Assembly: GCA_001938485.1 (NCBI GenBank)
Contig: MQRK01249292.1
Coordinates: 1 to 63,592 of the forward strand
Reading direction: 5' to 3'
Length of the DNA: 63,592 nt
From: Girardia tigrina
Taxonomy: Eukaryota
Below, one piece after another: positions 5,158 through 59,971 of the stretch. How positions within the stretch are numbered: the first letter of the stretch is position 1; every line of letters starts with the position of its first letter. Below the pieces are notes generated by a model, which was not told the origin of the DNA, ran no database searches, and was given only the letters and a program-made list of their open reading frames with translations. Made by a program: the position numbers and the translations under genes.

Positions 5158-5499
5158 GTGAGTGCTATTTTCTTAGTTAATTGCTATTTAGTTTTATTTT
5201 CTTGATTTTTTAAAATAAAATGTTTATTTATTTTTTAAATATTTGTATTTATTTCTACTTTAACATCTATTTTAATATTTTCAAAGTCATTGTAATCACT
5301 TTTTATTAGAGTTGTCTTAATAGGTTCTGTGATAAAAGAGTACAAGGTAAAACAGAACATTTATTTTGAAGCACAATAATTACTGATAAACAAATAATAT
5401 TTTTAGGCGGAACATTTATTTATTTTTGCTGTGTGTGCGACAGACATACATGCTCTTTCAAGATTTAGAAGTATTGTTTGCGGTGCCAAATTCGGTAAC

Positions 5500-5900: not shown

Positions 5901-6009
5901 TGAATCATGGAAATGTCTTGGGATTCCTCCAAAGACACTCTCATTTTCAGTTTTTAAAATACAAATTCTCGTTAATAATGTTCTGTTTTATCACTGTTCT
6001 GTTGTATCA

Positions 6010-14625: not shown

Positions 14626-14999
14626 TATATAAATCTTCCTTTATTTTATTAATTTATTCAGTTAATTGTGGCTTTATTCATTTTAATTATGTTTCATTTA
14701 AAAATTTATCTTTGAAAATTTTATTTAATGTAAAAGTAACATTTTCTCTACATAAATTATTTATTTTATATCAATATGGAAAATTTGAATATTATGTGTA
14801 AAATTTATGTAAATTTTTTTTATACATGTTTTTGTCTATAAAAGCAATTATTTGATGTATAATAAATTTATTTTGTAATAATCTTTACATAAATAGTAGT
14901 TACTTGATCTTATCAAAAAACTTAGCCATTATTATCCTTATGTTATTAAACATTTAATTAGTATGATCTAATTCTCCAATTAACGCTTCTAATATTTAG

Positions 15000-15217
15000 A
15001 TCTATAAGATACACCTGTCGCCGATTGGTGAGATTAATATTTTTCTTCTGTGGTTTTCATTACTTACAAGTTCGTGGCAAACGAGCTGATCCTAAAGAAG
15101 CAATGATTTTGGTTGCCGCTCCGCATTCTACATTCTGCGATATTTTAGCTGTCTTATCAGGACGAACTTTAAGTGGTATTTCTAAGTCAGAAAACGCCTC
15201 AATTCCTGGTTTAGGAA
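15000..15217 (+). CDS. LPCAT-like exon with acyltransferase motif I (HxxxxD: PHSTFCD)
   Basis: tttag|...ILVAAPHSTFCD...|gtgata; phases are compatible with both neighbours. Confidence 0.93.
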
Positions 15218-15269
15218 GTGATATTTCTAATGCTTTACCGGGTCAAACTAGAAAGACTTTTCTTTGTAG

Positions 15270-15443
15270 GTCTGGGTAAATTATTACAACCAATTTGGGT
15301 TAATCGAGAAGATATGAATTCTCGAATAAGAACCATTGAATTACTATCCGAAAGATCAAAGTATGCGTGGAAAATGCCACAAATTGTTGTATTTCCTGAA
15401 GGAACGACAACTAATAGAAGTTGCTTGATAAATTTTAAAGCTG
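15270..15443 (+). CDS. LPCAT-like exon with QPIWVNR and FPEGT motifs
   Basis: Follows a 52-nt GT-AG intron; encodes PQIVVFPEGTTTNRSCLINFKAG. Confidence 0.95.
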
Positions 15444-15488
15444 GTAACGAAATAATCAAATGATCCTAATTTGATATTGGCTGTTAAG

Positions 15489-15835: not shown

Positions 15836-16816
15836 GGTGACCCGACAAAATAGCGAACGAAAAAATAGCAGCAACAAAATAGCACTAAATTTCCCGACAA
15901 CATAGCGCCGACAAAATAGCACCGTCTCCTCACATCAAGGCACGTTCATTGATTCAGCAAGGGGAGTAAGCCAATCAAATTTGCAGCCCTTAGACTGCAC
16001 CTCGAGTAACCAAGTCCTATCTGTTCCTGAATTTCAACTTGGATCCCGCGATAGCCCTGGTGTCCCTCTAGCTCCGCACGCACCGCCAGTTCGATCACCA
16101 CCTAATTTTCTTGATCGTCTCCGTCACAACCNCCGCCAGTAGCTTTTTCACGTCGCGCGGGAAGTGCGAATCAAACAGACCATCCTTGACATTGCGCGCG
16201 CTCACCGCTACATTGCAGTAGAGCAAGCCCACTTCACAGTACAACTCGCTCTCCGCCTCTTGATCGTCCACGACCCACCTCTCGATTATTTCCGTGTCCA
16301 CCTCGTCCTCAAGCACGATCCCCCCGGTCGCTGTCGCCATGTTCCTATGCTTGTCCTTAAAATTGTTACCAAACCCGGGCGCTTTCACGGCGCACACTCG
16401 CAGCCGGGCGAGCATGAGCGCCATCAACGCCCCTCCGTCCACGCTCTCGGCCACCAGGAAGAATGGCCCTCGAGATCCTGTCCGAGAACAGAATATACAT
16501 GTTCGGGAACTCGAAATGACAAAACACGGCGAGATGCATCAACGATCAAACTCCATACGTGGATCGTCCTGGCATCCCCGACCGCCGTCCATCCCGACCT
16601 TCCGAATCACATCCGAGATTATACCGACTACTCAAAGGTCCTGCTCGTCGAAATCGCCACTTTCTGGCGATCCACTTGGGTGCTCCCCACCGGAAATCGA
16701 TCAAATTGGCGTCCATGTTGATCTGCCCACATCCGTCTATCTAATACACAACAAATAATATCCAAAACCCAAATTTTAATAATTGATAAATATTAGCGCT
16801 ATTTTGTCGGGGAACC
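15836..16816. mobile_element. Non-autonomous TIR element (MULE-like ends) carrying GC-rich cargo
   Basis: Left ggtgacccgacaaaatagcg and right cgctattttgtcggggaacc are inverted copies (18/20). The left end has tandem acaaaatagc subterminal repeats. Possible degenerate 9-bp TSD gtctgtgtg/gtttgactg (6/9). Confidence 0.65.
16190..16730 (-). pseudogene. Degenerate, internally deleted hsp60/cpn60 (mitochondrial chaperonin-type) fragment
   Basis: Collinear motifs across frames: ANLIDFRWG, IISDVIRKVG, MEFDR*CISP, EFPNMYILFS, then VAESVDGGALMAL..RVCAVKAPGFGNN...MATATGGIV. Confidence 0.85.
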
Positions 16817-18297: not shown

Positions 18298-18960
18298 CTA
18301 GATAAGAGACGGCTCCCGTTCCACGCTCTCTTAGCTACTGGCAATGGACAGATGATCTTGAAAAGAGTCTTTGAATCCTCAATGACCGAAGGTAAGAAAA
18401 TCTCAGGAAAAAAGAAGCAACAAATCAAAGAATGCCTAAGAGTTGACACGGAATGGCTTTTTGGAGAAACCGCTTCTTTTGATTATTTTTAATGGAGGGA
18501 TTCAATTGCCATCTATGCCGAAAGAACTATAAGACCAAAGGATGGCTCATCAGACATCTCAAAACAGTGCACAAAATTAAAGAAGAACAATTAGTCCAAC
18601 TTTTTCCGAGCAGAACCAATCAGTCCAGACAATCAGAAGAAGGGAATCTACCACTGAACGCGATACTAGAAGACAAGGCAACTCAAGTACCAATCGTCGA
18701 TCCGAATGCTGCTTCGATAGGAGAGTCAGAAGCGAGTCCTTTAGAAATCCATCTGGACTACCGCCTTACAGATCTTACTGTGAGAGAAACCTTCAGATGC
18801 CCGTTTCGCGGATGTGTAAAGTCCACGTACACAGCCAAAGGGATGCAGAATCATGGGACTACTATCCATGACTGGTCGTTTCTGACTGGATTTCCAAAGC
18901 GTGAGCGGAAGCCTGACGTCCATGTAGGAGGCATATCGGGGAGCTTATAGATTTATTTGG
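18298..18960 (+). mobile_element. 3' fragment of an RTE-like LINE (RT-ORF C-terminus plus a downstream two-C2H2 ORF at 18492-18950)
   Basis: KRVFES.MTEGKKISGKKKQ...WLFG followed by CHLCRKNYKTKGWLIRHLKTVH and CPFRGC...QNHGTTIH. Homologous to 55090-57350. Confidence 0.75.
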
Positions 18961-26689: not shown

Positions 26690-27320
26690 GTGTTCTGAAT
26701 CGTTTTTGTGTTATCGATTAGAATTGGTATAAATAATACACAAAAAATATAATACACAAAAACAAGATGATTAAATTTTTATTGGAGGTCCAACAGACGG
26801 AGGTCAAACGGCGGTGGCCAAACGGCAGAGGCCAAAAGTGATGTACGGAAAATTTTTAGCAAAAAATTATAATCGTAATAATATAATAAATTATAATAAT
26901 TACAATTTAAAAATTAAAATATAAACTTTCAAAGACGAAAATTCAGCTCACCCGTCATATATGACGGGCTTTTACTAGTTAGATATTATTCTTTCTGCTT
27001 TTTTATTTTTATTCTCTAATTTCTTTCTATTTCTGTATAAAAGATTAAAACGAAAACATTTAATAATGAATGTTTTTAGCATACTTTTGTAATTCTTTTT
27101 TTCAAATAACTGTTTTTAAACATTCCAGTTCAAAAATTTACTTTGGCTTACAACATAAACTTAGTTCAGATCATATTCTAAAAGATTTTTTTAGATTTTG
27201 TGTAACAATTTTTATTTTATGAAATCTATAAATGATTCCTGAATGTAAATATTTCTTAAAAATCATTATTACAAGTATCATATTATTATTATGCATCTGA
27301 AATATTTGGGTCGTTTACAG

Positions 27321-27403
27321 TACTTACCAGTTCATAATCCCAATGCAATGGAGCAGAAGGACGCAAAACTTTTTGCCAATAATGTACGAAATGAAATGGC
27401 CAG
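27321..27403 (+). CDS. LPCAT-like exon (YLPVHNP...LFANNVRNEMA)
   Basis: tacag|...AG|gttaga; matches the family motif LPVY.P...E..DA.LFA.NVR..MA. Confidence 0.93.
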
Positions 27404-32039: not shown

Positions 32040-34210
32040 ATGACATTTATTTTGAATGTTCAAATATTTGTTGCTTTTTTTACAGTAATTTAAATTTAAA
32101 GCTATGTCGTCTTTATCACATGACAACAAAATATTCCTTATTCAGCTTTATTAGGAAAATAGAAGGAGTGACATTGCTATTTTGTCAAGGTTTAGAGTAA
32201 TTCAAGGAATTCATCATGAGCATGATGGACCCAACATTAATAGGAGTAAAAAAATTGAACAAGTAAAAAATTTGAACAAGTTAGAACAGTTGAAGCTAAA
32301 GATTTAATGATTTAAAGAAAGTTAAAGCTAAAGTTGACACTCATTAGAACAAGAAAAGATTGACAAAGTGGAAAGCATCGTTGCAGCAGATGACAATATC
32401 AACTTTACCAAAATTTCAAAACTTACAAACATTCCTCAATCAACAGTTATTGAAATCTTCCAACAACATCCCTATCTACAACATTTATCTGCATCCCTAT
32501 CGTATTCATGTCGTCAATACTCTCACAGTTAAGTAATATGAAGAACGAATTGCTTATTGTGAATCCATGCTGAAAAAGTTTTAACATTATTGGGTTCGTG
32601 ATCAAAATTCTAAGTCATAATTTGCAAACTTTATTTCTAATATAATTTCCATTATTGAAACAAATTTATGAGGAATAATATTTCAATTACATAATCCAGA
32701 TCTAAAAATTCTAAGTATAAATAATAATATCGATGTATAAATATATATATGTTATTTTCTTCAATTTTGCATAAATCTTATTTTGTTTCTGTTTTATTAA
32801 TTTTTTACAATGTTTATAAATTTAGATCTTTAAAAATATTTTAATGGTCATATCCTGTAAAAATTCAATTCCTAAATAATTTTTCTTTAATCTTAAATCA
32901 TTCCATTTTAAATTATTTTTTTAATAAAACTTTCCATTGACAATTAAATTCAATAAGATTATGATTTTTATTTTAGACTTGATTATAAAACATTCAATAA
33001 ATTATTTTTTTTTAATAAAAACTTTCCGTGTACAATTAAATTCGATAAACATTCTAATTTTATTTTTAATAGTGTTACAAAATATATCAAAATCTTCTTT
33101 GCAATATTCTTTAACTTCGAAGATGATATTTTAATTGTGAATTTTTAAAACTTAATTTTTATAAAAAATTGTCCCAATTTAATTAAAATATTATCATTAA
33201 TCTAAAATTTTTTACAAAACTTATTTCATTTTAATTAGTAACATACTATCTGTGAACTGTAATTTTTACAAAAATTATTTCAATTTAATTAGTAGATATA
33301 TTACCTATAAAATATATTTTTTATGCAATCTCATTTATTTTAATTAGTAAAAATATTATCTATAAACTTAAATTTTTTATTTAAAAAATGATTTCATTTT
33401 AATTATTCGAACATTATTTTTAATTTATCTAAAATATAAATATGATTTTTAATTTAAAAAATATCAAAAATTTAAAGTTCACCAAAAAGAACCCCAACAA
33501 ACATAATGCAACCTTTCTTAACAATGTGTTATGAATGGTGCAGTTAATACGTGGAATTATAGAATCTGGAGTTCATGCAATGCACACAAATTTAATGAGC
33601 AGCACTTATTGTCTTTTAAGGTAACAGTATGGCTTGACTTCACAAGAGACTTCAATCTCAAACCTTTTTTTCTTTGAGGAACATGATGGTGAGATTTCTT
33701 ACCTTTACAACTGACAGATACTATGAAATGATTATTAATCATGTTATTCCACGAAGAAATAATTGTCAATAACCACTTTCCAGCAGGATGGGGCAGCAAC
33801 TCATACAGATAATAAAACAAAATAACGTCTTCAAAAAAATTTTGGCGATAGGCTTATCGGAAAAGGTTTTGATTTTTCATTGCCGGTCAGAAGTTGAAAC
33901 CTGAGTGTATGTGACTTTTGGGTCTGGGGAATACTAAAATCCAAAGTTTACAATCCACCTCCAACATCTCTTACTGAACTTAAACAGAGGATTGAGCAAG
34001 TACTTTTAGGAATTAAGAAGGAAGGGGTTGTGGACAGCGTTACTTTACGTCTACGTTTGTTTATAGCTTAATGTGGTAGACATTTATTCACGATTCGACT
34101 TAATAAAATCCTTAGTTTAATGTGACATTTTCATGTGTTCATAATTTCTATAATTTGAGTTTTAATTATTTCATGCTGCATTGAAGTTCTTACTTTATAC
34201 TAACCCTGGA
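32040..34210 (+). mobile_element. Highly decayed DD41D-type Tc1/mariner element split by a solo LTR
   Basis: An HTH-like 5' part lies before 32588; FQQDGAA and CDFWVWGILKSKVY lie after 33500. Confidence 0.6.
32588..33499 (-). mobile_element. Solo LTR with 5-bp TSD (AACAT)
   Basis: Closely similar to the gypsy 5' LTR at 45437-46271; flanked by aacat on both sides. Confidence 0.85.
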
Positions 34211-35560: not shown

Positions 35561-35734
35561 CAGTACCGGATCAAAACTCAAAGCTCAATTTTGTCAACTG
35601 TTTGATCACCCTAATATTATCTTAAAATTATCGATCTCTTTTTAAATCTTCTAAACCCTTCAGAAAATGCATTTTTTACATTCTCAATATACCATGTTGG
35701 TTGCGTGATTATGAGTTTTATCCAACATTAATTT

Positions 35735-38700
35735 TATTGGGTTCGCGATTAAGATCAATGTTCGTGATTAAATTTTATTTCTATTAAAACTTTCCTTATA
35801 CAAACAAATTTATGAGGAACAATATTTTTAGTTTGCATAAACCAGATTTAAAAATTCTAAATATAAATACAAAAATAAATTTTATTTTATTAAGTTTTGT
35901 ATATATTATATTTTGTTTTTTAGAGTATTTATTAAAATAAAACATAATTTAGATCTTTCAAAATATTTTTGGAAAATCTAATGTTAAAATTAAATTCATA
36001 AATTATTTTTATTCCTAATTTATTTTTTAAAACATTCAATTATAAATTATTTTTATATAACCTCTAGTTTACAATTAATTTCAATAAAGCATTGTCATTA
36101 TGATTTTTTTTAAATTAGTTTTATAAGAAGTATTATTTAATCCAGTGTTTCTCCACCTTTTTGAGTTAGTGACTCACTTAAAAGACCGTTAAATTTTTGT
36201 GACAGACCACAAATGAAAAGGCATTTGTTTTTCAAAATAATAACACATTTTTATACATGTGAAAATGATTTATTTATAAATTTTGTTGCAAATTTCATGA
36301 AACAAATACAGTTAACATTCCAAATACTCAATGTAACTATTATGATACATATTTATAATTTGAAAATTGTCTCATTTAATGAGATACTTGTGCTTAGTGA
36401 TGTTCGCATAATTTTTTGATGCGCGTTTCAATGTTGGATAAAACTACACTGAGCTATTGTTCTAGAAATAAAGGTCTTTCTCCTTTTTTTTCGATTTCAG
36501 TAATAACTGAATATCCCAATTCGCATGGATGTGAAGTCGAGAAAGGTAAGAAAATGTCCAACGCAATTTTTGATATATTTGGAAATTAAGGTGATATTTT
36601 TATCCAAAATGAAGATATATTGTTTTCGTCAAAATTTAGTTTTAAACTTGTCATTTTTAATATGTAACGGATATTTCCAAATTACTATCCAGGATACTAT
36701 TAAATAGTATCCACAAAGAATATATTTGAAGAGGTGATTTTTTAGAAAATAGTGATAGTATTTGGATTTAATTTTAATTTAATTGAATTATTTAAGTTAA
36801 AATTATAAAATATCGTATTTTTATTGGCAGAAACATGATTATTTTTAATATTATTACTATAGTATTTTAAGAATGTGAATACTATTTGGAATATGGATTT
36901 TATTTGGAAATATCCGTAATTAGTTCTTCTTCTGTCGAGAAAGAGAAATGATTTTCGTTAATATCGTTATTTAAAAATGGATTTCTGACCCAGTCGTATT
37001 TTCTGACATCTGTAGAGGCAAAAAAATGCAGAATTATGTTTTACAAAGTTGTGAGTGTTTCAGTAATTAGTTGTAAAATATTATTATCACATTTAACTTT
37101 TGATGTTAGAGAAAACATTTTTAATTTCTTATCTTGTATTCTTCTAATCCACATACTTAATTTATCATTAAAAAAATTGATTTTGTCACAGGATAATAAA
37201 ATATTTTCTTGTTTTCCCTGCATTTTTAAATTTAATTTAATAGATCTGCTAAAATGGTAACTTTGAACACCATAAATTGTCTTTCAAATAATCACTACCT
37301 ATTTTGTTCTGACGTAAAATAAACAAGTAATTCTTCTTGTAATTCATAAAATCAAGATAGTACTTTTCCATTAGATAACCACGGAGCTTCAGTGCGCATT
37401 AACAATGTTAAGTGAGCTGCATTCATAGCTTCGAATAATTTAGAAAATAGTCAGCATTTCAGGGCTTACTTTTAATAAAATTGACAACTTGTATTACTTG
37501 CTGATAAACAGTTTGGAAGTCAGCGGCCAGACATTTTGAGATTAATGCTTTTCTATGTAAAAAACGATGAGTAGTAATTATATCAGGATTTTGTTCCTTA
37601 ACAATAGTAATAAATCCTCTTATTCAGTCCGCCATTCATCTTTATCAGTACAAGTACTTGTGCAAGATTTCCAAATCAAATTATAAGATTGTTATTGTAA
37701 GGAGATACAAGTCATTTTCAAAGATTTATTTATATCCACAATTATGCCATATTATTTAAACAACAATTCAGGAGAATTAATAAAATATTGTGAATCCTTT
37801 TTAAATAAAAATATCAATATGTATTTAATATAATATAGATTGTTTATAATTAGTCATCCTTACAGTTATATCGATTATTTTCGCAGTACACCGTCTATCA
37901 TAAATAAATTAATTTAAATTTTTTGAAAAAATGATTTAAAAATGATCAAAATAATTATTAACAAATATTTTTAATTTTTAGTAATAATATTTTTTATAAA
38001 AATGTTTAAAAAAACTCTAACCCTCACAGGGTTTAGATTTCTTTTGCGACACACTTGAGTCAACTTCGCGACACAGGGGTTTGAGAAACACTGATTTAAT
38101 TTATTGTAAAATTAATGTCATCAAAATATTTAATCTATTTTACTTAGTAAAATATATAGATGTATAGATTTCTGAAAATTAATTTCAATAAAAGATTTAT
38201 TTTGATTTTTTTAAAACTTAATTTTATAAAAAGTAATTCGATAATCTATTGTAAAATTAATTTTGTCAAGAGAACTCACACCTGTGATAAAACATTTATT
38301 ACATTCACAGTTTTGATCATCTATATGACAAGCAATAGTATTGATTTCACTTAAATTTATCACACAATGTCTAATACTTCTCATTTCCAATCTGAGTTAA
38401 CTTGAAGAGAATTATTTTATTTAAAATATTTAATTTAAATTTTATTGGTTTAAAATAAAATTACTTTTCATAATCATTTTTAAACATTAATTTGATTTTA
38501 ATTATTTAAAAATTTACAAAAATAAAATTATTTAAAATTTACAATAATAATAAATTAAAAATTTGAATATTAAATCTAAATTTGAATAAATTAGTTTCAG
38601 ATTATAAGAATTAAAATATTAATCATCCATCTGATTAGGAGAAACACAATTCCAAATCAACAAACAACATTTAAGCATGCAAATACTTTCCAAAAAACAT

Positions 38701-40913: not shown

Positions 40914-43900
40914 AATTTAAAGTTCACCAGAAGTAACCCCAACATCCCCCTCGTTTTTAAAACTTTTGAATTTTTTAACATTTCGAATAATTTGTCTACC
41001 ATTTTTGTCTTCCAACTTGTAGCTTCTTTCGTGAATTCTTTCTATAATTTCATAAGGGCCATCGAATCTATCTTCTCTTTTCGTTCTATTTTCCTTTTGA
41101 ATCCTATTGAACCTTTTCGCCAACCTCTGGCGTGTTTTTTTCTTTTAGTCTTATTCTGGTATCCTCCCGGTTTATTTTGCTGTTATCATACCACTTTTGT
41201 CTGTCTATTTTTTTCCCAAATACGACTTTGCTGGACTGCACCCTATCGTCTTTTGTTTCGTTGCATTTATAGCAAATTCCACTTCCGGAAATATGTCTGC
41301 CAAACTTGTAGCATTTCTTTCTTTCAAACTTGCCTGTATGAATTCTCGTATTGTCCGAAACTGTCTTTCAATTATCCCATTTTGTGTTATGGTTGATATG
41401 GGCTAGAGAAAATCAATTCGATACCTTTTGCTTCCAACATTTCTTTTACTTTTTTCACTTCGAAACATTTCCCGCAGTCTACGTGGATCTCTTTTAGTGC
41501 TCCAAATTTTAATATCCATTTCTGTACTATCATTTGTACTATTGTCTCTTCATCTTGTCTTTTAATTGCTGTCAAGCTCACATATTTACTTTAGGTATCC
41601 ATTCTTTCATACCCGTTCGGGCTTGACTCCTCGTAGTCACTGCCAATAATCTCGTCTTGCTTTTTCCTTTTTTCGCTTCTTTGTGTTCCATTTGGCATTG
41701 TGTACATGTGTCGCAATTCTGTCTTGATAACATATCAGCGTTGCCGTGCAGCACTCCCTTTCTATATTCTATTTCGATATCCAAACTGCTTAAGTAATTC
41801 ATCCACGTTTGGAATTGAGCCGTTAAGGGTTTCTTTGTATGGAACATGAACTTTATAGCTTTATGATCCGTTCTCAATTTGAATCTCTTCCCGTACAAAT
41901 AATGGTTGAAATGCTGGCAAAAATAAAAAATTGTCAAAAGTTCTTTCCTTGTTATGTAATAACCTTTTTCATGTGCTGACATTAAATGTGATCCATATGC
42001 TATTACCTACTCTTTTCCAGACTCACTTATCTGTGACAGTACCACCCCTATATTATCAAAACTGGCATCTGTATCTAGAATAAAGTGTTTTCCGAAATCT
42101 GGGAAGCTCAGTATTCTCGTATGTCCTTAAACGCTATTTCGCATGCATCCGTCCAGATTAACTTTTCTTTATTTAAACTACACATTCCTTCTAATACTTT
42201 TTCTTTCTTTGCATATCCTTTAATAAACCTTCTATAATAGTTGCAAATTCCTAAAAAACTTCTCAAATTCTTAATACATTTCAGCCTTTGGAAATTCTCT
42301 ATCGCTGCAATCTTTTCTGGATCTGTCTGTATCCCTTGGTCATTTATTATGTGTTCCAGAAATTTTACTTCCGGTCGTAACATCTTACATTTCGCTGGTT
42401 TTATTCTTAGTCCTGTTTGTTGGATCCTCTCAAATACTTACCTTATCACCTTGTAATGTTTTTCCTTTGTACTTGTCGCTATTAGTATGTCATCCAAATA
42501 AACTGATGCCCCTTTCTTTATTGGTTGTAACACCTTTGTCATTAGTTCTTGGAATGTTCCTTGGACAATTATTTACTGGCAAATTATTTTTGTTGAGCGA
42601 CGTTCGGGCCCATAGGAACGCGCCCCAAAACTCTAGCTCACAATCGTGAATTATGGTCCTTAAGAGGACCGTATTTCTTTCGCCGATACGAGCATTTCGA
42701 AATATTATTTCTAGGTCGTTCGGATGATCATAGTTAAAATTCAATTTTCCATCTCTGCCAACTGATTGCAACCGATTCCAAAAAAGCTTGACACTCTATT
42801 GCCAATTTAAATGCATTTATCATTAATTTTTGAGATCCATTAACGTAAAGTTCCATAGTTAAAAGCCAAGGCATGTTGAAATGGTTTATTCTACAATATT
42901 CTGATGGATAATTTGTTTATTAGTGTGATTAACAAAAAAAAATCGATATTGCTATATATCTTTATTGAATCACATAAACTCTATACAAAATAATTCGTTA
43001 AAACAAAACGAATTTTTTCAATCATTTTTTTTTCTTTTTAATTATAACTTAACATATTTACATATATATACACATACATATATATATATATATAATTATA
43101 TAGATGTTGTATTAATATTTATTAAATTCAATTTTGATAGCTTTTTTAATTCATTCTGAAACATTCCTGGGGCTGTGGCTATGCCAAAAGGCATCTTTTT
43201 AAAACAAAACTGTCCTGTGTTGGTGGAGAACGCCGTTTTTTCCTGTGATTCTTTATCCAATTCCACTTGATAGTATGCATTCCCTAAGTCTATTGTACTA
43301 AAATATTTGGTACCGTGTAATCTATCCATCATTTCAGCTATATTCGGCATGAGGAAAGCTTGGAGCTTAGTGATTCGATTTAACTGTCTAAAATCCAGAC
43401 ACAATCTGATTTCGTCCTTGTCCTTTTTCCACACGCATACTATTGGTGTGTTCCATTCAGAATTACATGGCTTTATTATTTCGTTTTTCTCAAATTTTTT
43501 TATAGCTTCTTTTAGTTTGTCTTCCAGATGTACCGGCTGTCTTCTCGGTTTTTATGTTTATGGGTCCCCCTGTTGTCTCTATTCGGTGTTGTAGCAAGTT
43601 TGTACGACATATATCCCAATCGTTTGCCATAAATACTCCTCCGTATTCGTGAATTATTTTCTCTAGAGTTTTATCGTTTTTTGTATCTATCACTTTTAAT
43701 GCCTCTTGAACGCGATTCTCGTTGGTGATTTCTTTTCCAAAGTTAGCTTCGATTTCACATATGTTGGTTCTCTCTGTTTCCTGATAATTCCGCTCTTTCC
43801 ATTATAATTCTATTCCGAACTCTTTCATCAATGGTATTCCTCCGATCATCTCTGGTCTCAAACTTTTCTCCATTACAAATGTTATTTTTTCGGCTTTATT

Positions 43901-44343
43901 TCCAATCTTTACTATCGTTTCTATTTCTCCTCTGACATCAATTTGTAGTCCATTTACTGCGGTAAATCTCTGATTTGTCTGTTCTATCCTTATGTTATTT
44001 AAGTTTTTTAATATTCTTTCCGTCATAACGTTCAACGCTGCACCTGTATCCAGTAAACATTCGATTTCTATGTTTTCTATTCTAACTTTTACACTCGGTC
44101 GGCTCTGTAATTTATCGTATGTAAATGGAACATTTTCACAATTATTAATTATTAGCAATTCTCTATCACCAAATGATTCTTTTTTTATAAATTTCACGAC
44201 TTTCTGACTTACTTCTGGTTCCTGATGGGGTTTTGGTTCACTTTGTTCTTTTTGATTATTTTTCTTAATTTTATCATTTATATTATTGATATCAACTTTA
44301 TGATTTATTTTATTTATATAATTTATATTACTACTACTACTAC

Positions 44344-44386
<43 letters not shown>

Positions 44387-46271
44387 ATGATCTGGTTCAT
44401 GTAAATGAAAACTTACTCCAGTGCCAAGATCGGTTCCTCGTCGTCTCGACACGATTCGTTTTTTTCTATATGTTCTCGCTCTCCTCCGTTTTCTTCCTTC
44501 TTCATCATCGCGATCTGTCTTCCTCTTTCGAACATTCTTCTGTAGTCGTCTGAGTTCCGGTTTCCTGAGCTTTTCGTTTGTGCATCTGAGAATTGTCGGC
44601 TATCTCCTTGGGTTCTCCTTTGATAATTAGTTTTTCCTTGATATCGTTTATTCAAATTCGTGTAACATTCCTCAGCTCTATGTCCTGGATTATTACATCT
44701 TCCACATCTTACCTTCCTGCATTCTCGTCGGACATGACCTTCCTCGCCACATGCATGACATGTGATTTTTCTTTCTCGTTTATATTCGCTCCGTCTATGC
44801 CCTGTTTCTTTTCAGTTCCAGCATGATATATTGTTTTGCCCTGGATGTCGTCTAACATGCTTCCTGTCGCTGATCCTCTTTTTACCACGTCCTTGTATGA
44901 CGCTCTCATCGCATGTACTGGCCTTTCCATTTCCCGGACTTCATCCACTTTTTTGATGACATTTTTTACTTCTTTTATTTCTTTTACCTCTCTAAACTTG
45001 ATCTCTTTCTTCACATCACTGTACTTCGACCCATGAATTAGAAGATTCTTTTCAATTTCTTCTTCCGACCAATTATGTTTTGCTTATTTTGCTGCAAGTT
45101 TCTTTGCTTTTGCAAAGTATTCTTCCGCTGATTCATTCGTTCTTTCGAAATTTACAGCCTCCATCAGATCCTCCATCAGAGAGCTTTTCTTTTGAAAAGC
45201 TTCTCGTAACCGAGCTTCATATCCCTTTGTCTCGACCGATACATTCTCCTAGACAGGTAAAAGTTCATGAGAAAGCAATTCAATTATCAAAATCTCTTGT
45301 ATGTTTTCTGGTGTTTTAGCCACCTTAAAATAACTTGAGCATGCTGCTATAAATGTTTCAACATTGTCTTCTTTCCGGTATTTTTCCGGTAGAAGTCTCG
45401 CAATCAACTGATCCGAGTTGCTGGCTATGGTCGCCATATTAGGTTCGTGATTAAAATTGGAAGTCATAATTTTGTAAACTTTATTTCTATCACAATTTTC
45501 ATTATTGAAACAAATTTATGAGGAACAAAATTTTAATTACATAATCCAGATCTCAAAATTCTAAATATAAATAATAATATCGATAAATATACAAATATGT
45601 TATTTTATTCAATTTTGTATAAATCATGTTGTTTTTTTGCTTTATTAATTTTTTTGCAATGTAATCTAAATTTAGATTTTTAAAAATATTTTTAAAAATT
45701 CAATTCTTAAATGTTTTTTTTGATTTTTAATCATTCGATGATAAATTATTTTTTAATAAAAATCTTTTATTTGTTTTTAATAAAATTGCATTCTTTTTAA
45801 AATTTATTTTACTTAAAAAAGTATTATGATTTTATTTTAAATAGTGTTACAAAATATATTAAAATCTTCTTTACAATATTCTTTAACTTCGAAGATTGTG
45901 AATTTCGAAGATTTAATTGTGAATTTTTAAAACTTCATTTTTATAAAAAATTTGTCCCAATTTAATTAAAATATTATCATTACTCTAAAATTTTTTAAAA
46001 ACTTATTTCATTTTAATTAGTAATATACTATATGTGAACTATAATTTTTACAAAAATTATTTCGATTTAATTAGTAGAAATGTTACTATAAAATATATTT
46101 TTTAAAAAATCTTATTTATTTTAATTAGTAAATGTTATCTATAACTTAAATTTTTATTTTAAAGAATTATTTCATTTTAATTATTTGACATTATTTTTAC
46201 TTTATCTAAAATATAAATATGATTTTTTAAAAATATCAAAAATTTAAAGTTCACCAACAGTAACCCCAACA
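40914..46271 (-). mobile_element. Ty3/gypsy LTR retrotransposon, decayed (5' LTR 46271-45437, gag, PR, RT, RH, IN, PPT, 3' LTR stub)
   Basis: Order gag, LLDTGA protease, RT (CLDFRQLN, IDLGNAYYQV, MPFG), RH (RKELL, TDHKA, NADMLSR), IN (SSPYQP, GPYEI). PPT gaggggga precedes TGTTGGGGTTAC at 40944, and the same LTR start occurs at 46271. Confidence 0.92.
42500..43140. mobile_element. Secondary insertion (Tc1-like remnant) interrupting the gypsy RT
   Basis: RT homology breaks at ~43150 and resumes at ~42500. The plus strand has FWGAF-complementary and DVRAH-type fragments and a (TA)n tract. Confidence 0.4.
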
Positions 46272-46497
46272 ATTTCAACAAATAATTTATTTCTCCATTT
46301 GCACAGATAATAAGATTAAATTCAATAATTATAAGAGATTTATACAATCTTATGAAAGCTTTAACAAAGATTGTCCTGAGGTCAATCAAACTTGTCATAA
46401 TAAAAATGTTGAAAGTCATACTGGTGTTCTTAATAATTTGTGTTTATATCGAAATTCGGATTATTAAAATATCGATTATTGAATTTGAACACTGTTA

Positions 46498-50990: not shown

Positions 50991-52684
50991 CGAAATACTA
51001 AACTTGCGTTCACAAGACTGAAAATATATTAATATTTAAAAAGGAAATAATCTTATTTTTAACTTCTTTTTATTGATAAAAGTTCTATAATCATACCGAT
51101 AACCCAACAATTTTATAAAACAATAAACTATGGTGTAATTTTATTTATAATCATTATTTTGTTCGTGGAAATTACGAACCCTCTATAAGTTAAAATCACA
51201 CATGCATTAGGTTATACACCTTAGTATTGATAATTGAATATTTGCTGTAAGATATTAACTTATTATTTAAACCTAACTATTAATTGAATTTAAGTATTTC
51301 TTTCTAAAATTCGAATAATTTTGAATAATGCTTCGAAATCATTGTTATAATTTTACTGAAAATAAGGAACTTTAATTTAATAAATAATTGTTATTAATTT
51401 TTATTTAAAATCATTTATATTTAGTTTTAATTAATTCTAATATTTAAGGTAGTAATAATATAAAATAATTACTTTTTCATTAAAATAAATATTGTTGAAT
51501 AATAAGAATTATCGTTTCTGAAATCGTAAAATATTTTTTCATAATTACCTTTAACCTTGCTTAATTCGATTTGTTTAAATGAATCATTTGTATTAATGGT
51601 TCATAATCATTAAATACTTCTTATTTCAAATTCGCTATGATATTATTATCGATATGTTTAGTGTTAGGTAAATGAGTATTTTAAGTGGATTCATTCGTTA
51701 TAAATATTGTATATGTAATAAGTCGTTACATCGGCCATCGATTGCCTCAATTGTTACACATGTGACTCCATTAGACATGCCGATTGTTTGGAGAAATTCG
51801 TTTATGATGGGGAGAACAAATTGTCGTCCGAGCCGTGCGATCGGTACGTTGGAAAGGCCAATTTTTGTGTGAAGACGACAGGCGTTTATGGAGGTTGGTA
51901 TCATTACTGTCCATATTTTGTTTAAACGAGACTCAAATTTCCACTTCTTTTATTGGCATTGAAGATGCTCGGGACTTTGTGTCCTTCATTTATAAACACT
52001 GAGATTGTCTAGTAGCAACTTCAAATATCGAATTTCATCGACAACCATCGTTTTTGCTTAAAAAGACAAGTTGTTTCAGTGAAGTGTTTGTTAATCTTCA
52101 CGAAATATATTATTGAGACTTTAATAGTTATTATAAAAGAAAAAGTAAAACAATATCTGCTTGTCGAATTTTTCTTTTATTTAAAGATAATACGAAAAGC
52201 TTAAAAAGATACTGGTGACGTTGGTTGTGTTCATTAATCTTATTGAACAAATCATCCTAGTCTTGATACTTTTAGTTTTGTTATGGTAGTTCATAAATTC
52301 AAGAACGTCATTATCATGAAATTCCTCAATTTTATTAAGATTATATTCGAAAACTTTTTCTACTTGTGCCATAGTCAATACATCTGGAATTGTTTTTTTT
52401 TCATTTTCCACCTGATCGATATCACATATATTTTACAGAAACAACAATTATGCATAATAGATATTGCAAGATAATGGCAAAGAAAACATTTTCTAACCAC
52501 CATTCCGACAATGACCAATTCATATTCAATTTCCTCATTAGCATTCTCAAATATCTCTTTTTAACCCTTTCAATACTTCGGGGATTTAATAAGTCCCAGA
52601 GAATGTTCAAAAATTCGTCTTTTGAATATATATACACCCATTTTTTTCTTAATAGGGCACTCTATACATAAGAGTTAATAATAA

Positions 52685-53014
52685 GTACACTATATGGAAA
52701 CTTACCGAAAATAAATAAAATTTATCCAATAAATTATTGGATGAAAATAAATTTGTGTTACCTTGTAAAGTACGGAACGATAGAGAAAACATATCGTTTT
52801 CTCAAATGGAAATTGATAGCTGCCAATGCTTAGTTTGCGAGAATGAGATTGGTTGCATTTCTCTAAGTTTTAAGGAAAAGTGAAATAAATGTATTTTCAT
52901 CCAATAATTTATTGGATAAATTTTATTTATTTTCGGCATGTTTCCATATAGTGTACTTGCTTAGTACATTTTGTGACCTGATGATGGGATTATTATTATC
53001 TCGAAACGCGTCGT

Positions 53015-53020
<6 letters not shown>
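52685..53020 (+). mobile_element. Penelope-like pseudo-LTR copy with an inverted 5' segment
   Basis: 52757-53019 duplicates 49943-50214; 52685-52747 is the reverse complement of ~52893-52956. Confidence 0.82.
52975..53015 (+). ncRNA. Minimal type I hammerhead ribozyme (paralog of 50170)
   Basis: gac-CTGATGA-t-gggat(tattatt)atctc-GAAA-cgcg-TC-gtc. Confidence 0.85.
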
Positions 53021-53062
<42 letters not shown>

Positions 53063-54757
53063 TAGTTTGAAGAAATAATTGTGTTGATCGTCAACGAGAT
53101 TGGCAGAAAAGATATTTGGAATTATTGTTAAACAAGAAATTGACGGTTAATTTTGTTCGCTTTGCTTCTATGAATACGGATGATATTTCCAAATCTTGCC
53201 CCTGATTCGATTTCACTGGTAAATCTCATATTTGGATGAAGTTGATTCATGTTTCAGTTAGTTCTTTTACAATTACATAATCTGTTGTGTCGTGCTCTAT
53301 GGTCTGTACCTTATCCCCATGAATACTATTTATATTAAACTTAGTATTTCGGAAAAACTTTAGAGCTATATTTAAGGAGGATAATGTTACTTATTTCAAG
53401 TAGCAAAATTTAAAATTTCAACAATAAAATTAATTTTGTTGTCAAATTCTGAAAAAATAGTAAAATTGTCAAATAAAATGTCAAAATATGTCATTTTAAA
53501 GATTAGCTTAAGCATTACAAATTCTTTATTAAAATGATTAATATATTTGTCTAACAAATATCTCCGAACACTTTTTCCATTTGCCTTTTCCCATTTAATA
53601 ATTCGAGAAAATTCGACAGGAAAAAATTTCTGCAAACGAATATTAATATCAGTCGAAAAGTACATTCTAAATACCGCGTTATTTCTTAAAACACTTTTTC
53701 GAGGAAATTATTAAAAAATATTTACTTGTATATTGAATTTTTTGTTTAAATTTACTCAGCCTATGAGTATTTATTTGTTCTAATTGGCTTTCGTATTCCC
53801 TTTGAAATTTTTAAAGGCCAAAAAGATCATAAAAGTCCTGATTGAGAGATTAATATAACAGGCATGTCTTATTGATTAATTAATGTTGTGTGGAAATATA
53901 TTATCTGAAGAGGTTTTATCATTTATTTTTCTATTAAAAATAAATAGATCCTTATCGGTTCACTTGTGGTTTTCAATTACTATATTTTAATTATATTTTT
54001 ATGTGAATTTTGTAAATAATGAGCAATATATTTATAATTCCAGAAGAAAATAAAATATGTACTCACTTAAATTATAAACTTATCTTTTAAAAATTTGTCT
54101 TTTGATAATCTGATAAGAGAAAATGTTTTGTACTGTTAGAAGACAAAGGATCTGCACAAAAATATATTTAAATAAACTAAATCACAAACACACATACATC
54201 AGTTATATACAGAATAAATGGAGAGTCTGCTCTCGACCCCGTAATAGTTATATAATACAAATTTAGAATTATTCTAAATTTGTTGATTGCATAATATTTT
54301 ATTTAATTAATTTAAATTTAATTCTATAATATCTCACATGTACTTTAATTTAATCAAAGTACTATTAAAGTTAGAATTTATTTATTATTAGAATACATTT
54401 TTACTTTTTAGATTTATGTCGCCTAATAAATGAAAAATATGCTTATATCTCCATTACGTATTTCTGGGAATTCAAATTCTTTATTACAGTACTAAAAAAG
54501 ACCCGTCATATATGATGGAAGAACTGAATTTTCTTCTTTGAAAGTTTCTGTTTTAATTTTAAAATCATTATTATAATTTCTATTTAAATTCTAAAATATT
54601 TGAATTTGAGTTTCACTCACAATTTTGAATAATTCATATAAGTCATTAGGGAGAACCAAAAGTTCTTTCGGATATTTTATGTCATTCTAAAATAAATATA
54701 TTTGATATGCATGTGTTAGATACTATTTTAAAAGTCTCCAATTGTTCTATCATATTA

Positions 54758-54805
<48 letters not shown>

Positions 54806-55089
54806 GCAGTTCCGCAGATGCTGCTTATTTTTGGCTTGTAATTTCATATAAGCCGGAGTTATTATGCATTGATTAAAAAATAAAGCTATGCAAAAGTAAG
54901 AAAAAAATTTTATCACAGCAAACTTTGAGCATTACGCAGATGAAACTCTGGGCTTTTATATTTATAATTTAAAAAACTAAAATATTTTTCACATTATCTT
55001 AAATGTGACTTAAATTTTTTATTTATTTTTGTAGTTTTCAAATTTTTTTTATTATTTTAACGATTAAAATTTAATGTAAAATATAATAA

Positions 55090-57350
55090 GCCTCCCCCGA
55101 CAAAACGGATAACTGTGTATTGTAGAGACTACAGTACCAGCATTGACGTACAGGGTAGTGAGTCATAGACTCTGTATCGGGTAGAAACCATAAATAGACA
55201 ATACAGAGCCTACTAACTTTCTCGCACGGCTTTAGATGCAAGAATTCGAGCTTTCAATGCACGGACACGCTTCGGTTTCCCAGTCAGAAAGGATCAGTCA
55301 TGATCCCTCGTACCGTGATTTTGTAGAGCTTTGGCTGTGTAAACACGTTTCGTACAATGAGTAAAGGGACACCGAAATATCACCGCATCATTTTCTTTCA
55401 GTTCGTGAGGAACCCATGTATCGAGTTTTTGAACATAGCCAAGTTGTTTTAAGTGATTTTCAATGCATGTATGCGATGCATGAAGCTTCTTAGCGATCTC
55501 ACGTGTTGAACTGTGACGATCCGAATCGATTATTTGTATTACTTAACCGAAAGTTGAGAACCACCTTTGAAATCACTCATGAGTCCGTCTCCGCGGTACC
55601 GTCGAGGGTCACTGACACATCATGCATCGCGATCAGGTTCCAAGATTTTGTACATCCTACATCTACGTTATTTTGTGAAGCACTAGTACCAATGGTACTG
55701 ACTTGGGTTCGGTAATCGATCACTAAATGTCGCTTTAACCATTCATCCGTTTTATATGTCTTGTGACAATTTTCCATTGGACACTGGAAAGGTTTTTCAC
55801 CATTTTGTCGCTGTGGCATTGTAACGTATGCACATTTTTCATGTGTCTTTTTAGTTCAAAGCTTTAGTAAAAAGTAAAAGCTTTTTTTTAGTAAAAGCTT
55901 TGAAACATTACACTCTTTTGATACGCGGATGGAGCATTTTCGGGTACTCCTTTCCTTGTTCAATCACTTCTTTCAGTTTTCAGACACAGTTCCTTTGATC
56001 AGGTGTTTGGATTTCTCGTCAGTGTCGAGAATTCCTCTCTCATTCAAGCATTCCTGGTATTCGACCAGATTTTCTTGGACGCCAAATAACCAGAGCATAT
56101 CTTGGGCGATACGCTCTTTCATTAATTGCTTTTTACGGCCGCTGACCTTTCTATTTCCTGAGGCCATTTCAGAGTTTAATACTCTTTTAACCTCACGTAC
56201 ACCTTTTCGTCTATTGTATTCAAAGAATACAATACGCAATTTCAACAGTACCACACGCACCTCTGGAAAACCAATTGACATATCCGTATTACCTATTCTA
56301 TCAATTTAGTTTTACCAAGAGCAGTGTGTGTGCAGGTATTATGAAAAGCTTGTAGACGGGTTACCTCTTTTTCGGGTGTTGCCCAGCACTCACTCCCATA
56401 ATACACTGCCGGAAAAATACTTGATTTGATTAGTCTTTTTTTCAGCGCTATAGGAACTCGGTTACTTTGATTAGCAGGCTACAATTCTTGTAAATTACTC
56501 ATTCCACAACGCAACCGCTGACCGATATCCCGACTGCAGCTACCATATATGGTCAATATACTGCCGAGGTAACAGAACTCGCTCACCTATTCTATGACTT
56601 TGTCACCACACATCATTTGCGATATTCCAATCCCCGAGTCATCAGTTAGGCACATGACTTTCGTCTTAGATGCACTAATAGTCAACCCGAATTTTGAAAA
56701 TGGGCTTCTAAGTTCATCCAGGTTTTTACAGGCACGATCTATACCAGAGTCTATGTACATAGATCATCCGCATAAGCAAGTCTATTGACTTGAAATTCGT
56801 CACCATGCTCATCAATCAGGGTAATTCCGTCATCGAATCCTTTCAGTATCGCCGTTCTGATAACTTCATTGAAGACCAAGTTAAAAAGACAAGGTCCCAT
56901 CAGACATCCCTGTCTGACACCTCTTTCTATGAGAAACTCATTATCCCCCACAGAAGCAAAAAAGCTCTTATGAAATTCCTTTATCAGGTAGAAAATCTTG
57001 TCGGTTAAGCTGAATCTTTTCAGACAGGCCCACAGAACTTCACGTGGAACACTATCAAATGCCTTTTCCAAATCGGTGAATACCACAAATACCTTGTGGT
57101 TCTTATAACAACCTTCTTCCTGTATCCGCCTGAGTATACTTATAGCTTGTATAGTACCTCTCTTCGGTTGAAAACCAAACTGACAAGGGTCTAACATTTC
57201 TTTCATCTCCGGCGTCATTCTATTTACGATTATTCGTGCAAAAACTTTGCAGGTGACTTCTAAGAGGAAGATTCCTCTATAATTTATTCGGATCAGACCT
57301 TGCACCCTTTCCCTTGAAGAGTGTTATCACCTTTGCACTCCTCCAAGCCT
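55090..57350 (-). mobile_element. RTE-like non-LTR retrotransposon, 5'-truncated, with a 3' C2H2 module; small mariner fragment inserted at ~55390-55545
   Basis: NYRGI.LL, QFGF, DLEKAFDSV, GVRQGC and LAYADD RT motifs; downstream CPMENCHKTYKTDEWLKRH and CPFTHC...QNHGTRDH fingers. Confidence 0.9.
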
Positions 57351-58386
57351 TTTATTGTAAAATATACAACTAGTTACATCAGTAATAGTGAGCCTATGAC
57401 ACGCCAGCTCGTTTTTGGTGACTCACATCTGTAATGATGGAATATTTCATTATTCTAATGTTTGTCTCTTATTGATGAGATTAAGAGTTGGTTATTAACA
57501 ATATTATTATTTTGGCCCTAGATTACTTTCTGGGAATAACCAAATGACATATCATTTAATTATTTTTTTATAATTTTTTTCATCAATCTTAATTTGAAAT
57601 AATCAAAATAATTAATTAATTTGAAACAAACCAATGTTTTGTTAGTGAAAAAAGCATTAAACAAATACATTACTTAAAAATATAAATATTTTTATTTTAA
57701 AGTCTTCATTTTTGTGCTGTGTAACAAACCACGAAAATTATACTTTGATTTTTCGAATTTCGACACACCGATTTCAAAATTTTCGCCATCACTGATGTAC
57801 ATGGGCACCTACAACTCACAACATATCCGAAAATTATGTGCATAAGTCGGCAAAATAAACTTTATTGAATATATATGATAATTGTATACATAATAATCAT
57901 TATTTCAATTCTTTATTCATTAATTCTTTTCAAAAGAAATTTTTATCAGACTTTCAGGATCTTTTTGTTTGTTCGATAGTCTTTTGTACATTTGGGGACT
58001 GAGTCCCGTTCTTTAGGTATTGCTATGTGCAATAGGGTTCAAATTTTCGGTAAAATCGTTTTTTTCACCAAATATTGTATTTTTTATTCATAACTACTGC
58101 TTTTCTCATCATACCAGCAATTTTCCAGATTTTAACACCCTTAATTTCTTATTTTGAATAATTTAAAACATTTTTTACATTTAAATACAAATGGGAACAT
58201 AAAAATCATCTTTCCTTTTTTGAGTAATTTTCATAGAATTGTTAATTTGAGTCCGATTTTCTTTCATGTTTGATGGAGTCTTTTATATCACTAGACTGCC
58301 GGGGCGGGGTATCTTTTTGCGATTCATTTTAATTTCGCGCTTGACCTAATTTAATTTTAAATTTTATTTATTTTACTTGAAATTTA

Positions 58387-58597
58387 CCGTATTTTTCCGT
58401 ATATATAACCCCATTTTTTGTCAAAATTTCATGAACATTTAACTCGAATTTTCAAAAATTAGTAAATATTTGAAATATTTCTACAACACAAAAGATTTCA
58501 ATTTAATTTCTAGAATGAATTAAGGTACTTTTTTGAACTTTTTTCCAAAAATGCACACCCAAAAATAAGGGGGGATCTTATACACGGAAAAATACGG
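58387..58597. mobile_element. pogo/Tigger-like MITE
   Basis: TIRs ccgtatttttccgt.tata / tatacacggaaaaatacgg with TA TSD. Confidence 0.8.
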
Positions 58598-58650
58598 TAA
58601 GTTTTCTGTACTTTTAAAACAATTAATTACTTTAAGAATTCTTAATATGC

Positions 58651-59090
58651 ATCAATGGTCGCAGTTGGGAGCATCGGATCTCGTCCGATCTCCGAAGTCA
58701 AGCAGCCAACGACCGCGTTAGTACTTATTTGGGTGACCGATATGGAAATCGCGGGGCCATTGATTACAGGTCAGGTCAGGCAATCTATCTGCTACAATTA
58801 CCATGTAAACCTGTAATACTTGTACCATGGTCGAATAGTTGGCGACTAAACCGGCTGCCTCACCCAGAGCAATCTGCGTGAAGAGGTGTGTGGACACCTA
58901 GCAGGATGAAAAACAAAACCTAGCAAAGGGCGGATGAGCTCTTTGGAGCCAACGGCCATCCAAACCTGGAGAGGAGATAAGCGCCACCAGGTTCCTTGCC
59001 TACTGTGACACTCAAATATATATGCAAACCGAAGCCATATGTTTGTGCATAATTGAGTGCCCCCACGGCCCAAAGGCTACGGTACCAAAA
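58651..59090 (+). mobile_element. 5S rRNA-derived SINE (SINE3-like): 5S-like head at 58651-58764 plus a ~325-nt body
   Basis: 5S signatures gatctcgtccgatctc.gaag.caagca, gttagtactt and tgggtgacc. No T-run terminator after the head; short A tail; flanking direct repeat aatatgc(atca). Confidence 0.8.
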
Positions 59091-59759
59091 AATATGCATC
59101 AGGTTCGGTAAACAAGTCAAAATTTTCCAAACCACATTTGTTGTTGTGAATGTTTTTCAAAACTGTGACACATAAAAATTATTATTACCATAGATTTTTG
59201 CATCTATACAATAATGTTTGAAGACTGAATAAAAATAATTTATAGAGTTTAAAAATATAAAATAAACAAACAGTAATTGTATGAAATATTATTAGGTAAA
59301 TGTAGAATCACTGTAGAAAAATATTTTCATTCAATATACGTCTTTATTTATGGGGAATAATGGAACACTGCGTGACCACCGTCATGAACTGCTGATTATT
59401 TAAACGTGTTACGTTCCGCTTCCTCGATTAAGCATAAAATAAGGAACTATTTAATGAACTTTATATTTTTAATAAAATATCTCAGTCAGAAATAATAACA
59501 AAAATTATATATAATCGTAATAGTTATTTTGGGAACATAAGAATAAACTGATATGAATGATATTTATTATATTTGTAACATTTATTATATTTATATTATT
59601 CTACCCATTTTTGAGTTATAAAACCTATGAAGAAAGTTCTTTTATCACAAAAGAAAAGAATCTAGTTGATTTAAAACTTATATATGCATATTTAAAGTTT
59701 ATATTTATTAACGAAAACTTTGTGATCTTTAAAGAATGATAAAGTTTTTGTTCGTCAAG

Positions 59760-59971
59760 GATTTGTAGGAATCAGAAGGTTCTGCAGTTCAATGGACATG
59801 GGTACCCAATGCCAGAATATAGAATACGCAGATCATGATAGAATGTATCGCACTTGTGTTTTTTCCTGTAGTTCAGACGGATGTAACATATCGAATCAAG
59901 CACTTTTTTCCTTCTCTCTTTGCATATCAAATCTCAGTTTACTTATTATATTTTATATCATTTTTCTATGA
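59760..59971 (+). CDS. Terminal exon of a Ly6/uPAR (three-finger, quiver/crooked-like) probably GPI-anchored protein
   Basis: tcaag|(x)FVGIRRFCSSMDMGTQCQNIEYADHDRMYRTCVFSCSSDGCN followed by a hydrophobic tail and TGA. The C..C..DGCN ending is typical of invertebrate Ly6 domains. Confidence 0.8.

Follow-up and report, generated by a model that had tools for sequence, protein, structure and literature searches.

A probable dispersed 5S rRNA-headed SINE family with a putative RTE-derived body in Girardia tigrina

The stretch of Girardia tigrina DNA analysed in this study, hereafter the window, comprises the 63,592 nucleotides of contig MQRK01249292.1. Positions 58651-59092 of its + strand very probably represent one aged copy of a high-copy, dispersed SINE headed by 5S rRNA-derived sequence (SINE3). 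This 442-nt unit is composed of a 5S head, a body, a tail, and a terminal run of six A residues, and it is short and non-coding, without an ORF of 90 aa. Three known SINEs, CoeSINE5 of the coelacanth, HaSE3 of Helicoverpa armigera, and SINE-1_Pmo of the python, are described in the parts of the sources consulted as a 5S head joined to an RTE 5' UTR and an RTE 3' end (PMC5786205; PMC3272025). Judged from sequence, the unit is best read as a 5S + RTE SINE of the same kind, and this reading is considered likely.

Extent of the element, its family, and its surroundings

All the motifs named in a preliminary description of this DNA were found in the sequence. The aatatgc(atca) direct repeats reported there around the unit correspond to an exact 11-nt repeat, with copies at 58644..58654 and 59091..59101 (both +), interpreted as a target-site duplication; in a control for such placement, a repeat of 11 nt occurred at 1/1595 positions and one of 8 nt at 8/1595. 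The final 3-4 nt of the 5' copy overlap the start of the element, likely as microhomology, and the opening 2 nt of the 3' copy are common with the A tail. The short A run said to close the unit is A6 at 59087..59092 (+), which forms the 3' end of the family according to both the sequence and the loose contig ends that follow 59092. The reported lack of TTTT after the head was also borne out, as a T-run scan detected no run of four T within the 442 nt of 58651-59092, and the first T4 lies at 59123, 358 nt downstream of the head. The duplication begins with A and is preceded by TTT 11-13 nt upstream, at this one site in AT-rich DNA. A target-site pattern of that kind is given for animal RTE elements in the part of PMC6007223 consulted, and the target site of the window copy fits it weakly. 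The fold of the whole unit was more stable than that of shuffled sequences (z -2.15), and there is no second copy of the unit within the 63.6-kb window.

Public sequencing runs indicate that the unit belongs to a dispersed family. Among the 24 runs listed, 20 contained part of the unit, and four were aligned to 58400-59500 at 80% likeness. In run X1, which contains the 3' flank without a difference, summed depth was 0.36-1.49 million over the unit vs. 68 on the unique 3' flank; the corresponding values were 2,000-9,400 vs. 5 in X2, which is guessed to be an RNA run, and 330-1,600 vs. ~3 in X4. Unit depth was thus 10^2-10^4 times flank depth in three of the four aligned runs, an order-of-magnitude figure in that summed depth is not copy number, and the family is estimated, again as an order of magnitude, at thousands to about 10^4 copies. 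Reads of X21, which carries another organism label, match 58896-58932 only. Among the matches listed, contigs stop sharply before 58652 (57 in X1, 3 in X4) and behind 59092 (146 in X1, 32 in X2, 15 in X4). The letters of these loose ends disagree (agreement 0.42-0.56 overall and 0.42-0.49 behind 59092), which points to many different insertion sites, and the excess of 3' over 5' ends among the matches listed (146 vs. 57 in X1, 15 vs. 3 in X4) is as expected from 5' truncation. Four X2 contigs among the matches listed begin at 58767 with mixed flanks and represent headless copies. Depth over the head was no higher than over the body in X1, X2, and X4, which argues against a separate 5S array of identical sequence, since such an array would raise head depth. 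This comparison of runs rests on the best 24 of 843 loose-end entries and on 40 of 95 variant entries. The idea of a multi-copy SINE with fixed ends is therefore upheld by the depth ratio of 10^2-10^4 and by mixed flanks at both ends.

The SINE has the same orientation as a quiver-like gene and lies in its putative intron at 51894-59759. The two exons of this quiver/sleepless-like, Ly6-fold gene (~51720-51893 and 59760-59971, +) are in phase and encode a hydrophobic C-terminus; the match to Pfam QVR has an E of 0.006, which is below the QVR cut-off. A search for host genes by shared words returned nothing, and the Atlas led to weak quiver-like clusters only. Besides the SINE, this intron of 7.9 kb contains MITEs and a LINE fragment. 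One of its elements, 211 nt long and bordered by TA at either end (58387-58597), is an inverted-repeat element that its ends mark as a Tc1/mariner-type MITE; multiple copies of it occur in X1, X2, and X4, where loose ends follow 58599-58600. The SINE begins 53 nt downstream of this unrelated element, and depth dips between the two, hence they are separate.

The window as a whole has ~30% GC and is rich in mariner, LTR, and LINE remains, with at least eight mariner/Tc1 transposase remnants across it. A decayed LINE with a reverse transcriptase (RT) and C-terminal C2H2 zinc fingers (~55200-57323, -, and 18483-18950, +) has a 3' end unlike the SINE tail, and its nearest full-length relatives are the endonuclease-RT-zinc finger proteins P0165-P0168 (52-56% identity). 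An ORF fragment at 16095-16538 (-) resembles, by eye, the cysteine-histidine/endonuclease end of an R2/NeSL-type element and has no Pfam match. Other features are exons of a lysophospholipid acyltransferase (LPCAT-like; ~14960-15445 and ~27250-27350, +) with a 53-nt intron at about 15218-15270, a tandem array of about 45-nt units open in several frames (5979-6549), and a broken gypsy-type LTR retrotransposon (~41500-46300, -, 32588-33500, and 35728-36136) to which LTR-like pieces in other parts of the window are related. Of the ten best-ranked clusters for an acyltransferase exon, four have an organism name, three of them from flatworms and one from a snail, with identities of 55-59%, in keeping with a flatworm host.

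The 5S-derived head

The head, of 114 nt (58651..58764, +), keeps helices I-V, loop C, and the core of loop E, and its loop A is short by 4 nt. The divergent 5S fold that had been proposed for it was supported by the Rfam 5S model, as cmscan matched RF00001 at 58651-58765 over the full model length (positions 1-120) with 63.7 bits (gathering threshold 38) and an E of 4.7e-11. This was the sole gathering-level Rfam match in the 63.6-kb window. In the alignment, three pairs are non-standard and the 4 nt of model columns 10-13, corresponding to loop A, are missing; the head fold was better than that of 197/200 shuffles (z -2.61). The loop A gap appears to be family-wide, as 57 X1 contigs align to 58652 and no insertion is found among the indel entries listed (12/19).

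Family letters improve this fold at several positions. The helix I pairing of the preliminary description is present, and its opening A-U pair in the window copy is G-C in the family: C accounts for 98% of family depth at position 58764, and directly upstream of 58652 the consensus of the loose ends in X1 and X4 has G. A58651 thus probably derives from the target site. The letters of the proposed gttgg/ccaac helix are also present, but they are not in the register of 5S helix II, for which cmscan pairs 58664-67 with 58703-06; the family letter at 58705 adds a U-A pair to this helix. Helix IV is fully paired with family letters (58724-28 with 58740-44) and has a GUGA loop and a variable bulge at 58729.

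Parts of a putative type-1 Pol III promoter can be assigned by their position in the cmscan alignment. The box A-like part (58696..58710, +), which we take to be 5S positions about 50-64, is present, as is the 3' part of box C. The putative box C-like part (58726..58743, +), presumably equivalent to 5S positions about 80-97, retains TGGGTGACC, and its G-rich start is replaced by A/T letters. These letters still pair in helix IV of the family (assigned by hand), and the family has G at 58743 in 95% of X1 depth. Two G residues that are read by TFIIIA in frogs are missing from box C of the head.

The properties of a functional 5S gene, namely a length of ~120 nt, an intact loop A, and a T-run terminator behind it, are not found in the head. 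Lacking a terminator, the head does not represent a working 5S gene. Departures from the Rfam consensus alone do not imply selection on the SINE, because the real 5S of a fast-evolving lineage would differ likewise, and planarian 5S rRNA is itself unusual. The planarian 5S sequence was neither contained in the PMC6884822 supplement nor surfaced by the literature search. In the consensus heads of HaSE3 and CoeSINE5, helix I is likewise closed by non-standard letters, with 9 and 5 pairs, respectively, by eye (PMC5786205, as far as available). By analogy, a kept 5S fold may be general for SINEs of the 5S-headed type.

Body, terminal hairpin, and tail

The body domain directly behind the head (58767..58962, +) is shared with a SINE-like element that lacks a 5S head. 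This element was found with a body pattern in two metagenome contigs, L001 and L002, which are one locus assembled twice and were counted once. By blastn, 153/220 positions (70%) are identical between L002 and window positions 58761-58962 (E 2e-20), and the local alignment score of 250 compares with 89 +- 8, maximum 136, in 300 shuffles. The homology begins at the head junction in both elements. Within positions 1-720 of L002, six tandem copies of a 5' unit of 51 nt, which carries a box A-like motif, precede a box B-like motif and the shared body. As ARAGORN called a tRNA in neither the window nor L002, the head of L002 is tRNA-like only through its 51-nt tandem unit and the box A- and box B-like motifs recognized by eye. 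In the window element, a CAGGT repeat adjoining the head opens the body, which contains four short hairpins and could represent an RTE 5' UTR. At ten body sites where the window copy differs from its family, the family letter is that of L002 at seven and that of the window at two, with one unclear (compared by hand).

Hairpins shared by the family and L002 were located at 58777-91, 58793-815, 58830-43, 58860-81, and 58964-92. They contain 2, 1, 0, 1, and 4 double changes, respectively (8 in total), and one broken pair, as counted by hand from two sequences in helices that were picked from those same sequences. A 4-bp stem at 58938-49 is identical in both. The L002 body folds better than all of its shuffles (z -3.20, 0/200 as good). 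For the window copy alone, the fold of the body, which had been claimed to be structured, did not stand out clearly from shuffles (z -1.27, 12/100 as good). RNAalifold, applied to the raw window copy with L002/L001, gave an unfavourable covariation term (+1.69), double changes at 6/62 pairs, and a partly different fold. The GCAA-tetraloop hairpin singled out in the preliminary description exists in the window copy as a private change, T58873 being C in ~97% of family depth; the family has at this site a longer stem of 7-8 bp with a 6-nt loop, and the window copy breaks this stem at 58877. A 21-nt A-rich stretch at 58901-58921 is identical in the window and L002, nearly so in X21 reads, and mostly unpaired in the models. 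Its possible roles are those of a promoter, a protein site, or a translation signal of a parent LINE.

The distribution of changes within the family bears on the earlier claim that the RNA structure is under selection. The window copy, which is ~4-5% diverged from the family majority, has private changes at a minimum of 19 sites where 93-100% of X1 depth differs, with X2 and X4 mostly in agreement. For the 15 private changes in head and body, 7/15 fall at paired sites, compared with a paired share of about 44% (both by hand). Six of these seven disrupt a pair or make it weaker, and the effect of the remaining one (58764) is compensated by the probably target-derived A. Private changes thus hit paired sites at the chance rate, and the claim is not supported for the window copy. 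This random decay implies that constraint, if any, acts on source copies. The six X1 sites listed as polymorphic at 15-85% (58681, 58699, 58729, 58784, 58837, and 58857) are all in loops or bulges by manual assignment, a placement with a rough chance of 0.02 under a model chosen after the data had been seen.

An embedded ribozyme, also suggested earlier, was detected neither by Rfam nor by descriptor in the window or L002. Over the stretch of the unit, Rfam at E up to 10 gave seven matches, only that to 5S being above chance and none belonging to a ribozyme family; L002 at E up to 5 gave two chance matches, again to no ribozyme family. An HDV descriptor had 0 matches at 0-1 mismatch on both strands of the window copy and L002, and when relaxed it matched at shuffle level (14/60 shuffles). 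The hammerhead core (CUGANGA/GAAA) is absent from the decayed window copy and from L002.

The main link of the element to RTE is a hairpin at 58964..58999 (+), composed of a 6-bp stem and a 17-nt purine-rich loop followed by TTGCC, whose likeness to an RTE 5' UTR motif was recognized by eye. The stem (58964-92) has six Watson-Crick pairs in both the window and L002, with four of the six changed on both sides; it is visible without family letters, and shuffled bodies give 0.068 such hairpins each. In the portion of the PMC5786205 supplement that was available, a stem that closes a loop of 17 nt and precedes TTGCC occurs in BovB (769-824), RTE_BOV_B_AC_1 (133-174), EbuSINE2, and SINE-1_Pmo, and is assigned to RTE 5' UTRs. 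The 5' UTRs of BovB and RTE_BOV_B_AC_1 share with the window a variable stem, a 17-nt loop with AGG...GG...CCA, and TTGCC (PMC5786205, as far as consulted). However, only ~36 nt are comparable, the start of the loop is one base out of register, and the 200 nt upstream are without counterpart in these sequences. The likeness of the central segment to an RTE 5' UTR noted in the preliminary description thus holds for the 36-nt terminal hairpin motif, but for the 200 nt at the start of the body there was no match among the RTE and SINE sequences in the article supplements searched, one set of which was covered for 12/33 files. Full texts of the literature contained none of the body motifs.

The 3' tail (59000..59086, +) forms weak hairpins (fold z -1.38) and is a putative LINE 3' end. 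Its final 8 nt agree with the end motif of RTE-1_OAf (3224-3275) at 7/8 positions, directly before the A run. The end of an RTE ORF as a possible source of such a tail was rejected, as a similar end motif was present in 0/78 RT proteins. The tails of the window element and L002 align poorly. A LINE with this body or tail was found in 0 viral contigs (three pattern scans), and the pattern gave 0 LINEs in prokaryote genomes plus one chance match in a bacterial gene. In metagenomes it found L001/L002 only, which are without a LINE ORF, and the tail matched no LINE fragment within the window. According to the part of a planarian preprint consulted, LINE/RTE and SINE/5S expanded together in Dugesia, and SINE/5S is seemingly absent in Schmidtea (10.64898/2025.12.11.693146).

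Mobilization, alternative explanations, and known systems

Taken as a whole, the sequence evidence makes it likely that the family is a Pol III-transcribed, 5S-headed SINE moved by an RTE-clade LINE. Such an element could have originated through fusion of a 5S gene to the 5' side of an RTE that internal deletion had reduced to a 5' UTR and a 3' end. Pol III would start at the first G of the head via boxes A/IE/C, read through the T4-free unit, and stop at the first flanking T run, which would be 59123 for the window copy. The RTE protein would recognize the tail and probably also the 5' UTR hairpins, and the RNA would be copied in trans by the RTE endonuclease and reverse transcriptase through target-primed reverse transcription. 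The 3-nt microhomology at the 5' end, the A start of the duplication, and the TTT at -11 to -13 fit this mode of integration, weakly, as one site. The hairpins and the 5S fold would likely be maintained in source copies, and the window copy would decay at random. A further proposal, drawn by analogy and rather doubtful, is that the head mimics 5S rRNA by binding uL18/uL5 or TFIIIA, as Alu does with SRP9/14, and that the 235-nt body is a structured, unlisted RTE 5' UTR domain conserved between distant animals. The 5S RNP proteins on the head would protect the RNA or park it at ribosomes making RTE protein. This mimicry is suggested by the retention of loop C, loop E, and five helices while loop A is cut, and by the heads of the independent moth and coelacanth families, which also close the fold.

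Other explanations concern the machinery that moves the family. Another LINE clade could now mobilize a 5S-headed SINE with an RTE body whose tail has been exchanged. Cases of such exchange have been described among SINEs whose body comes from RTE (PMC5786205, in the part consulted), and an exchanged tail would agree with the different tails of the window element and L002, with an RTE-end likeness of only 7/8 nt, and with the 0/78 result of the protein-end test. It is nevertheless judged unlikely, as the terminal motif occupies the exact end and is followed directly by the A run, the target site agrees, albeit weakly, with that of RTE elements, and RTE is the LINE group that expanded with SINE/5S in Dugesia (10.64898/2025.12.11.693146, as far as available). 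Somewhat less probable still is a non-autonomous two-part RTE driven by Pol II, from the RTE 5' UTR or by read-through, with the 5S head as a passenger or an RNA-stabilizing cap. The headless copies that begin at 58767 in four X2 contigs (among the matches listed) and the altered box C are compatible with a passive head, and Kapitonov and Jurka, as quoted in the available part of PMC3272025, considered moved 5S promoters weak. However, 57 X1 contigs with mixed flanks begin at the first 5S base, head depth is close to body depth, the family starts with G as 5S does, and the lack of T4 in 442 nt suits Pol III.

The remaining alternatives reinterpret the unit itself. A self-cleaving ribozyme of unlisted fold in the body, which would free the RTE part from upstream RNA, has its precedent in HDV-like ribozymes at some RTE 5' ends (PMC5786205 citing Ruminski 2011, consulted in part), and the conserved hairpins and invariant unpaired stretches common with L002, together with the headless copies, could be explained by it. 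It is regarded as highly improbable given the negative Rfam and descriptor scans, and cleavage would strip the head, yet headed copies are abundant. The full-length fold with loops E and C kept could also belong to the host's working 5S gene, or to a plain pseudogene dispersed with its spacer, but this is even harder to credit, as loop A is short by 4 nt family-wide, terminator and head depth peak are missing, and the DNA downstream is homologous to another animal's non-5S element and accompanied by an A tail and a target-site duplication. The possibility that the unit is a non-autonomous LTR element of the Ajax/Cassandra kind, whose LTR contains 5S, is negligible and already largely refuted. 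Elements of this type exist in ribbon worms and plants (PMC10886601, in the part consulted), but no LTR pair was found for the unit, the duplication is of 8-11 nt and not 5, the element extends from the first 5S base to A6, and the whole 5S fold is present, unlike in Ajax (PMC10886601, likewise in part).

The preferred reading, a 5S-headed SINE moved by an RTE-clade LINE, has practical and conceptual consequences. Copies close to 5S, present in thousands, would interfere with 5S annotation, FISH, and the mapping of small RNAs in the host. The family combines thousands of copies with a complete 5S fold whose loop A is cut, and its host is suited to RNAi, so that it offers a test case for whether a 5S head is a promoter only or also an RNP disguise, a question that has been answered for Alu and for which the literature searched holds no answer in SINE3. 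That literature, to which Repbase, Dfam, SINEBase, and preprint supplements did not belong, also contained no description of the window family or of selection on SINE3 folds, and the main text of PMC11410931 mentions neither SINE nor RTE.

The comparison with known systems is based on sources that were available in part. The suggestion of an undescribed SINE3 stands at the level of the family but not at that of the architecture, which is known (PMC5786205), nor at that of the class, as SINE/5S has been reported in Dugesia (10.64898/2025.12.11.693146). In this genus, SINE/5S expanded with LINE/RTE and makes up about 65% of D. hepta SINEs; the labels were produced by RepeatModeler and DeepTE and remain in the preprint text at class level, without consensus, anatomy, partner, or RNA structure (10.64898/2025.12.11.693146). 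The present analysis would give an anatomy to this class, which the preprint reports only as an automatic label. Cassandra and Ajax TRIMs resemble the window family as non-autonomous retroelements with a 5S-derived Pol III promoter (PMC10886601, PMC10946416), but they are LTR elements with 5-bp duplications, and of the 5S sequence Ajax retains just the promoter boxes, without the fold. The hagfish SINE1-1_EBu and Alu keep the fold of their small-RNA head with compensatory changes; as in the window family, a structured small-RNA head is retained beyond the promoter boxes, and the head of SINE1-1_EBu is joined to a two-part RTE, as proposed for the window family (PMC7245038); in contrast, their head is derived from 7SL and its ligand is SRP9/14 (PMC7245038). 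The closest systems are CoeSINE5, HaSE3, and SINE-1_Pmo, which have the same order of parts, a near full-length 5S head, and no terminator, and SINE-1_Pmo also shares the stem, its loop of 17 nt, and the TTGCC behind it (PMC5786205). Their sequences are unrelated to that of the window family except for this one hairpin, and the RTE-like body of the window family is longer, at about 235 nt. SINE3 elements are listed for vertebrates and insects only in the portions of PMC7245038 and PMC10946416 consulted, so that the window family would extend the known 5S + RTE SINE design to a flatworm.
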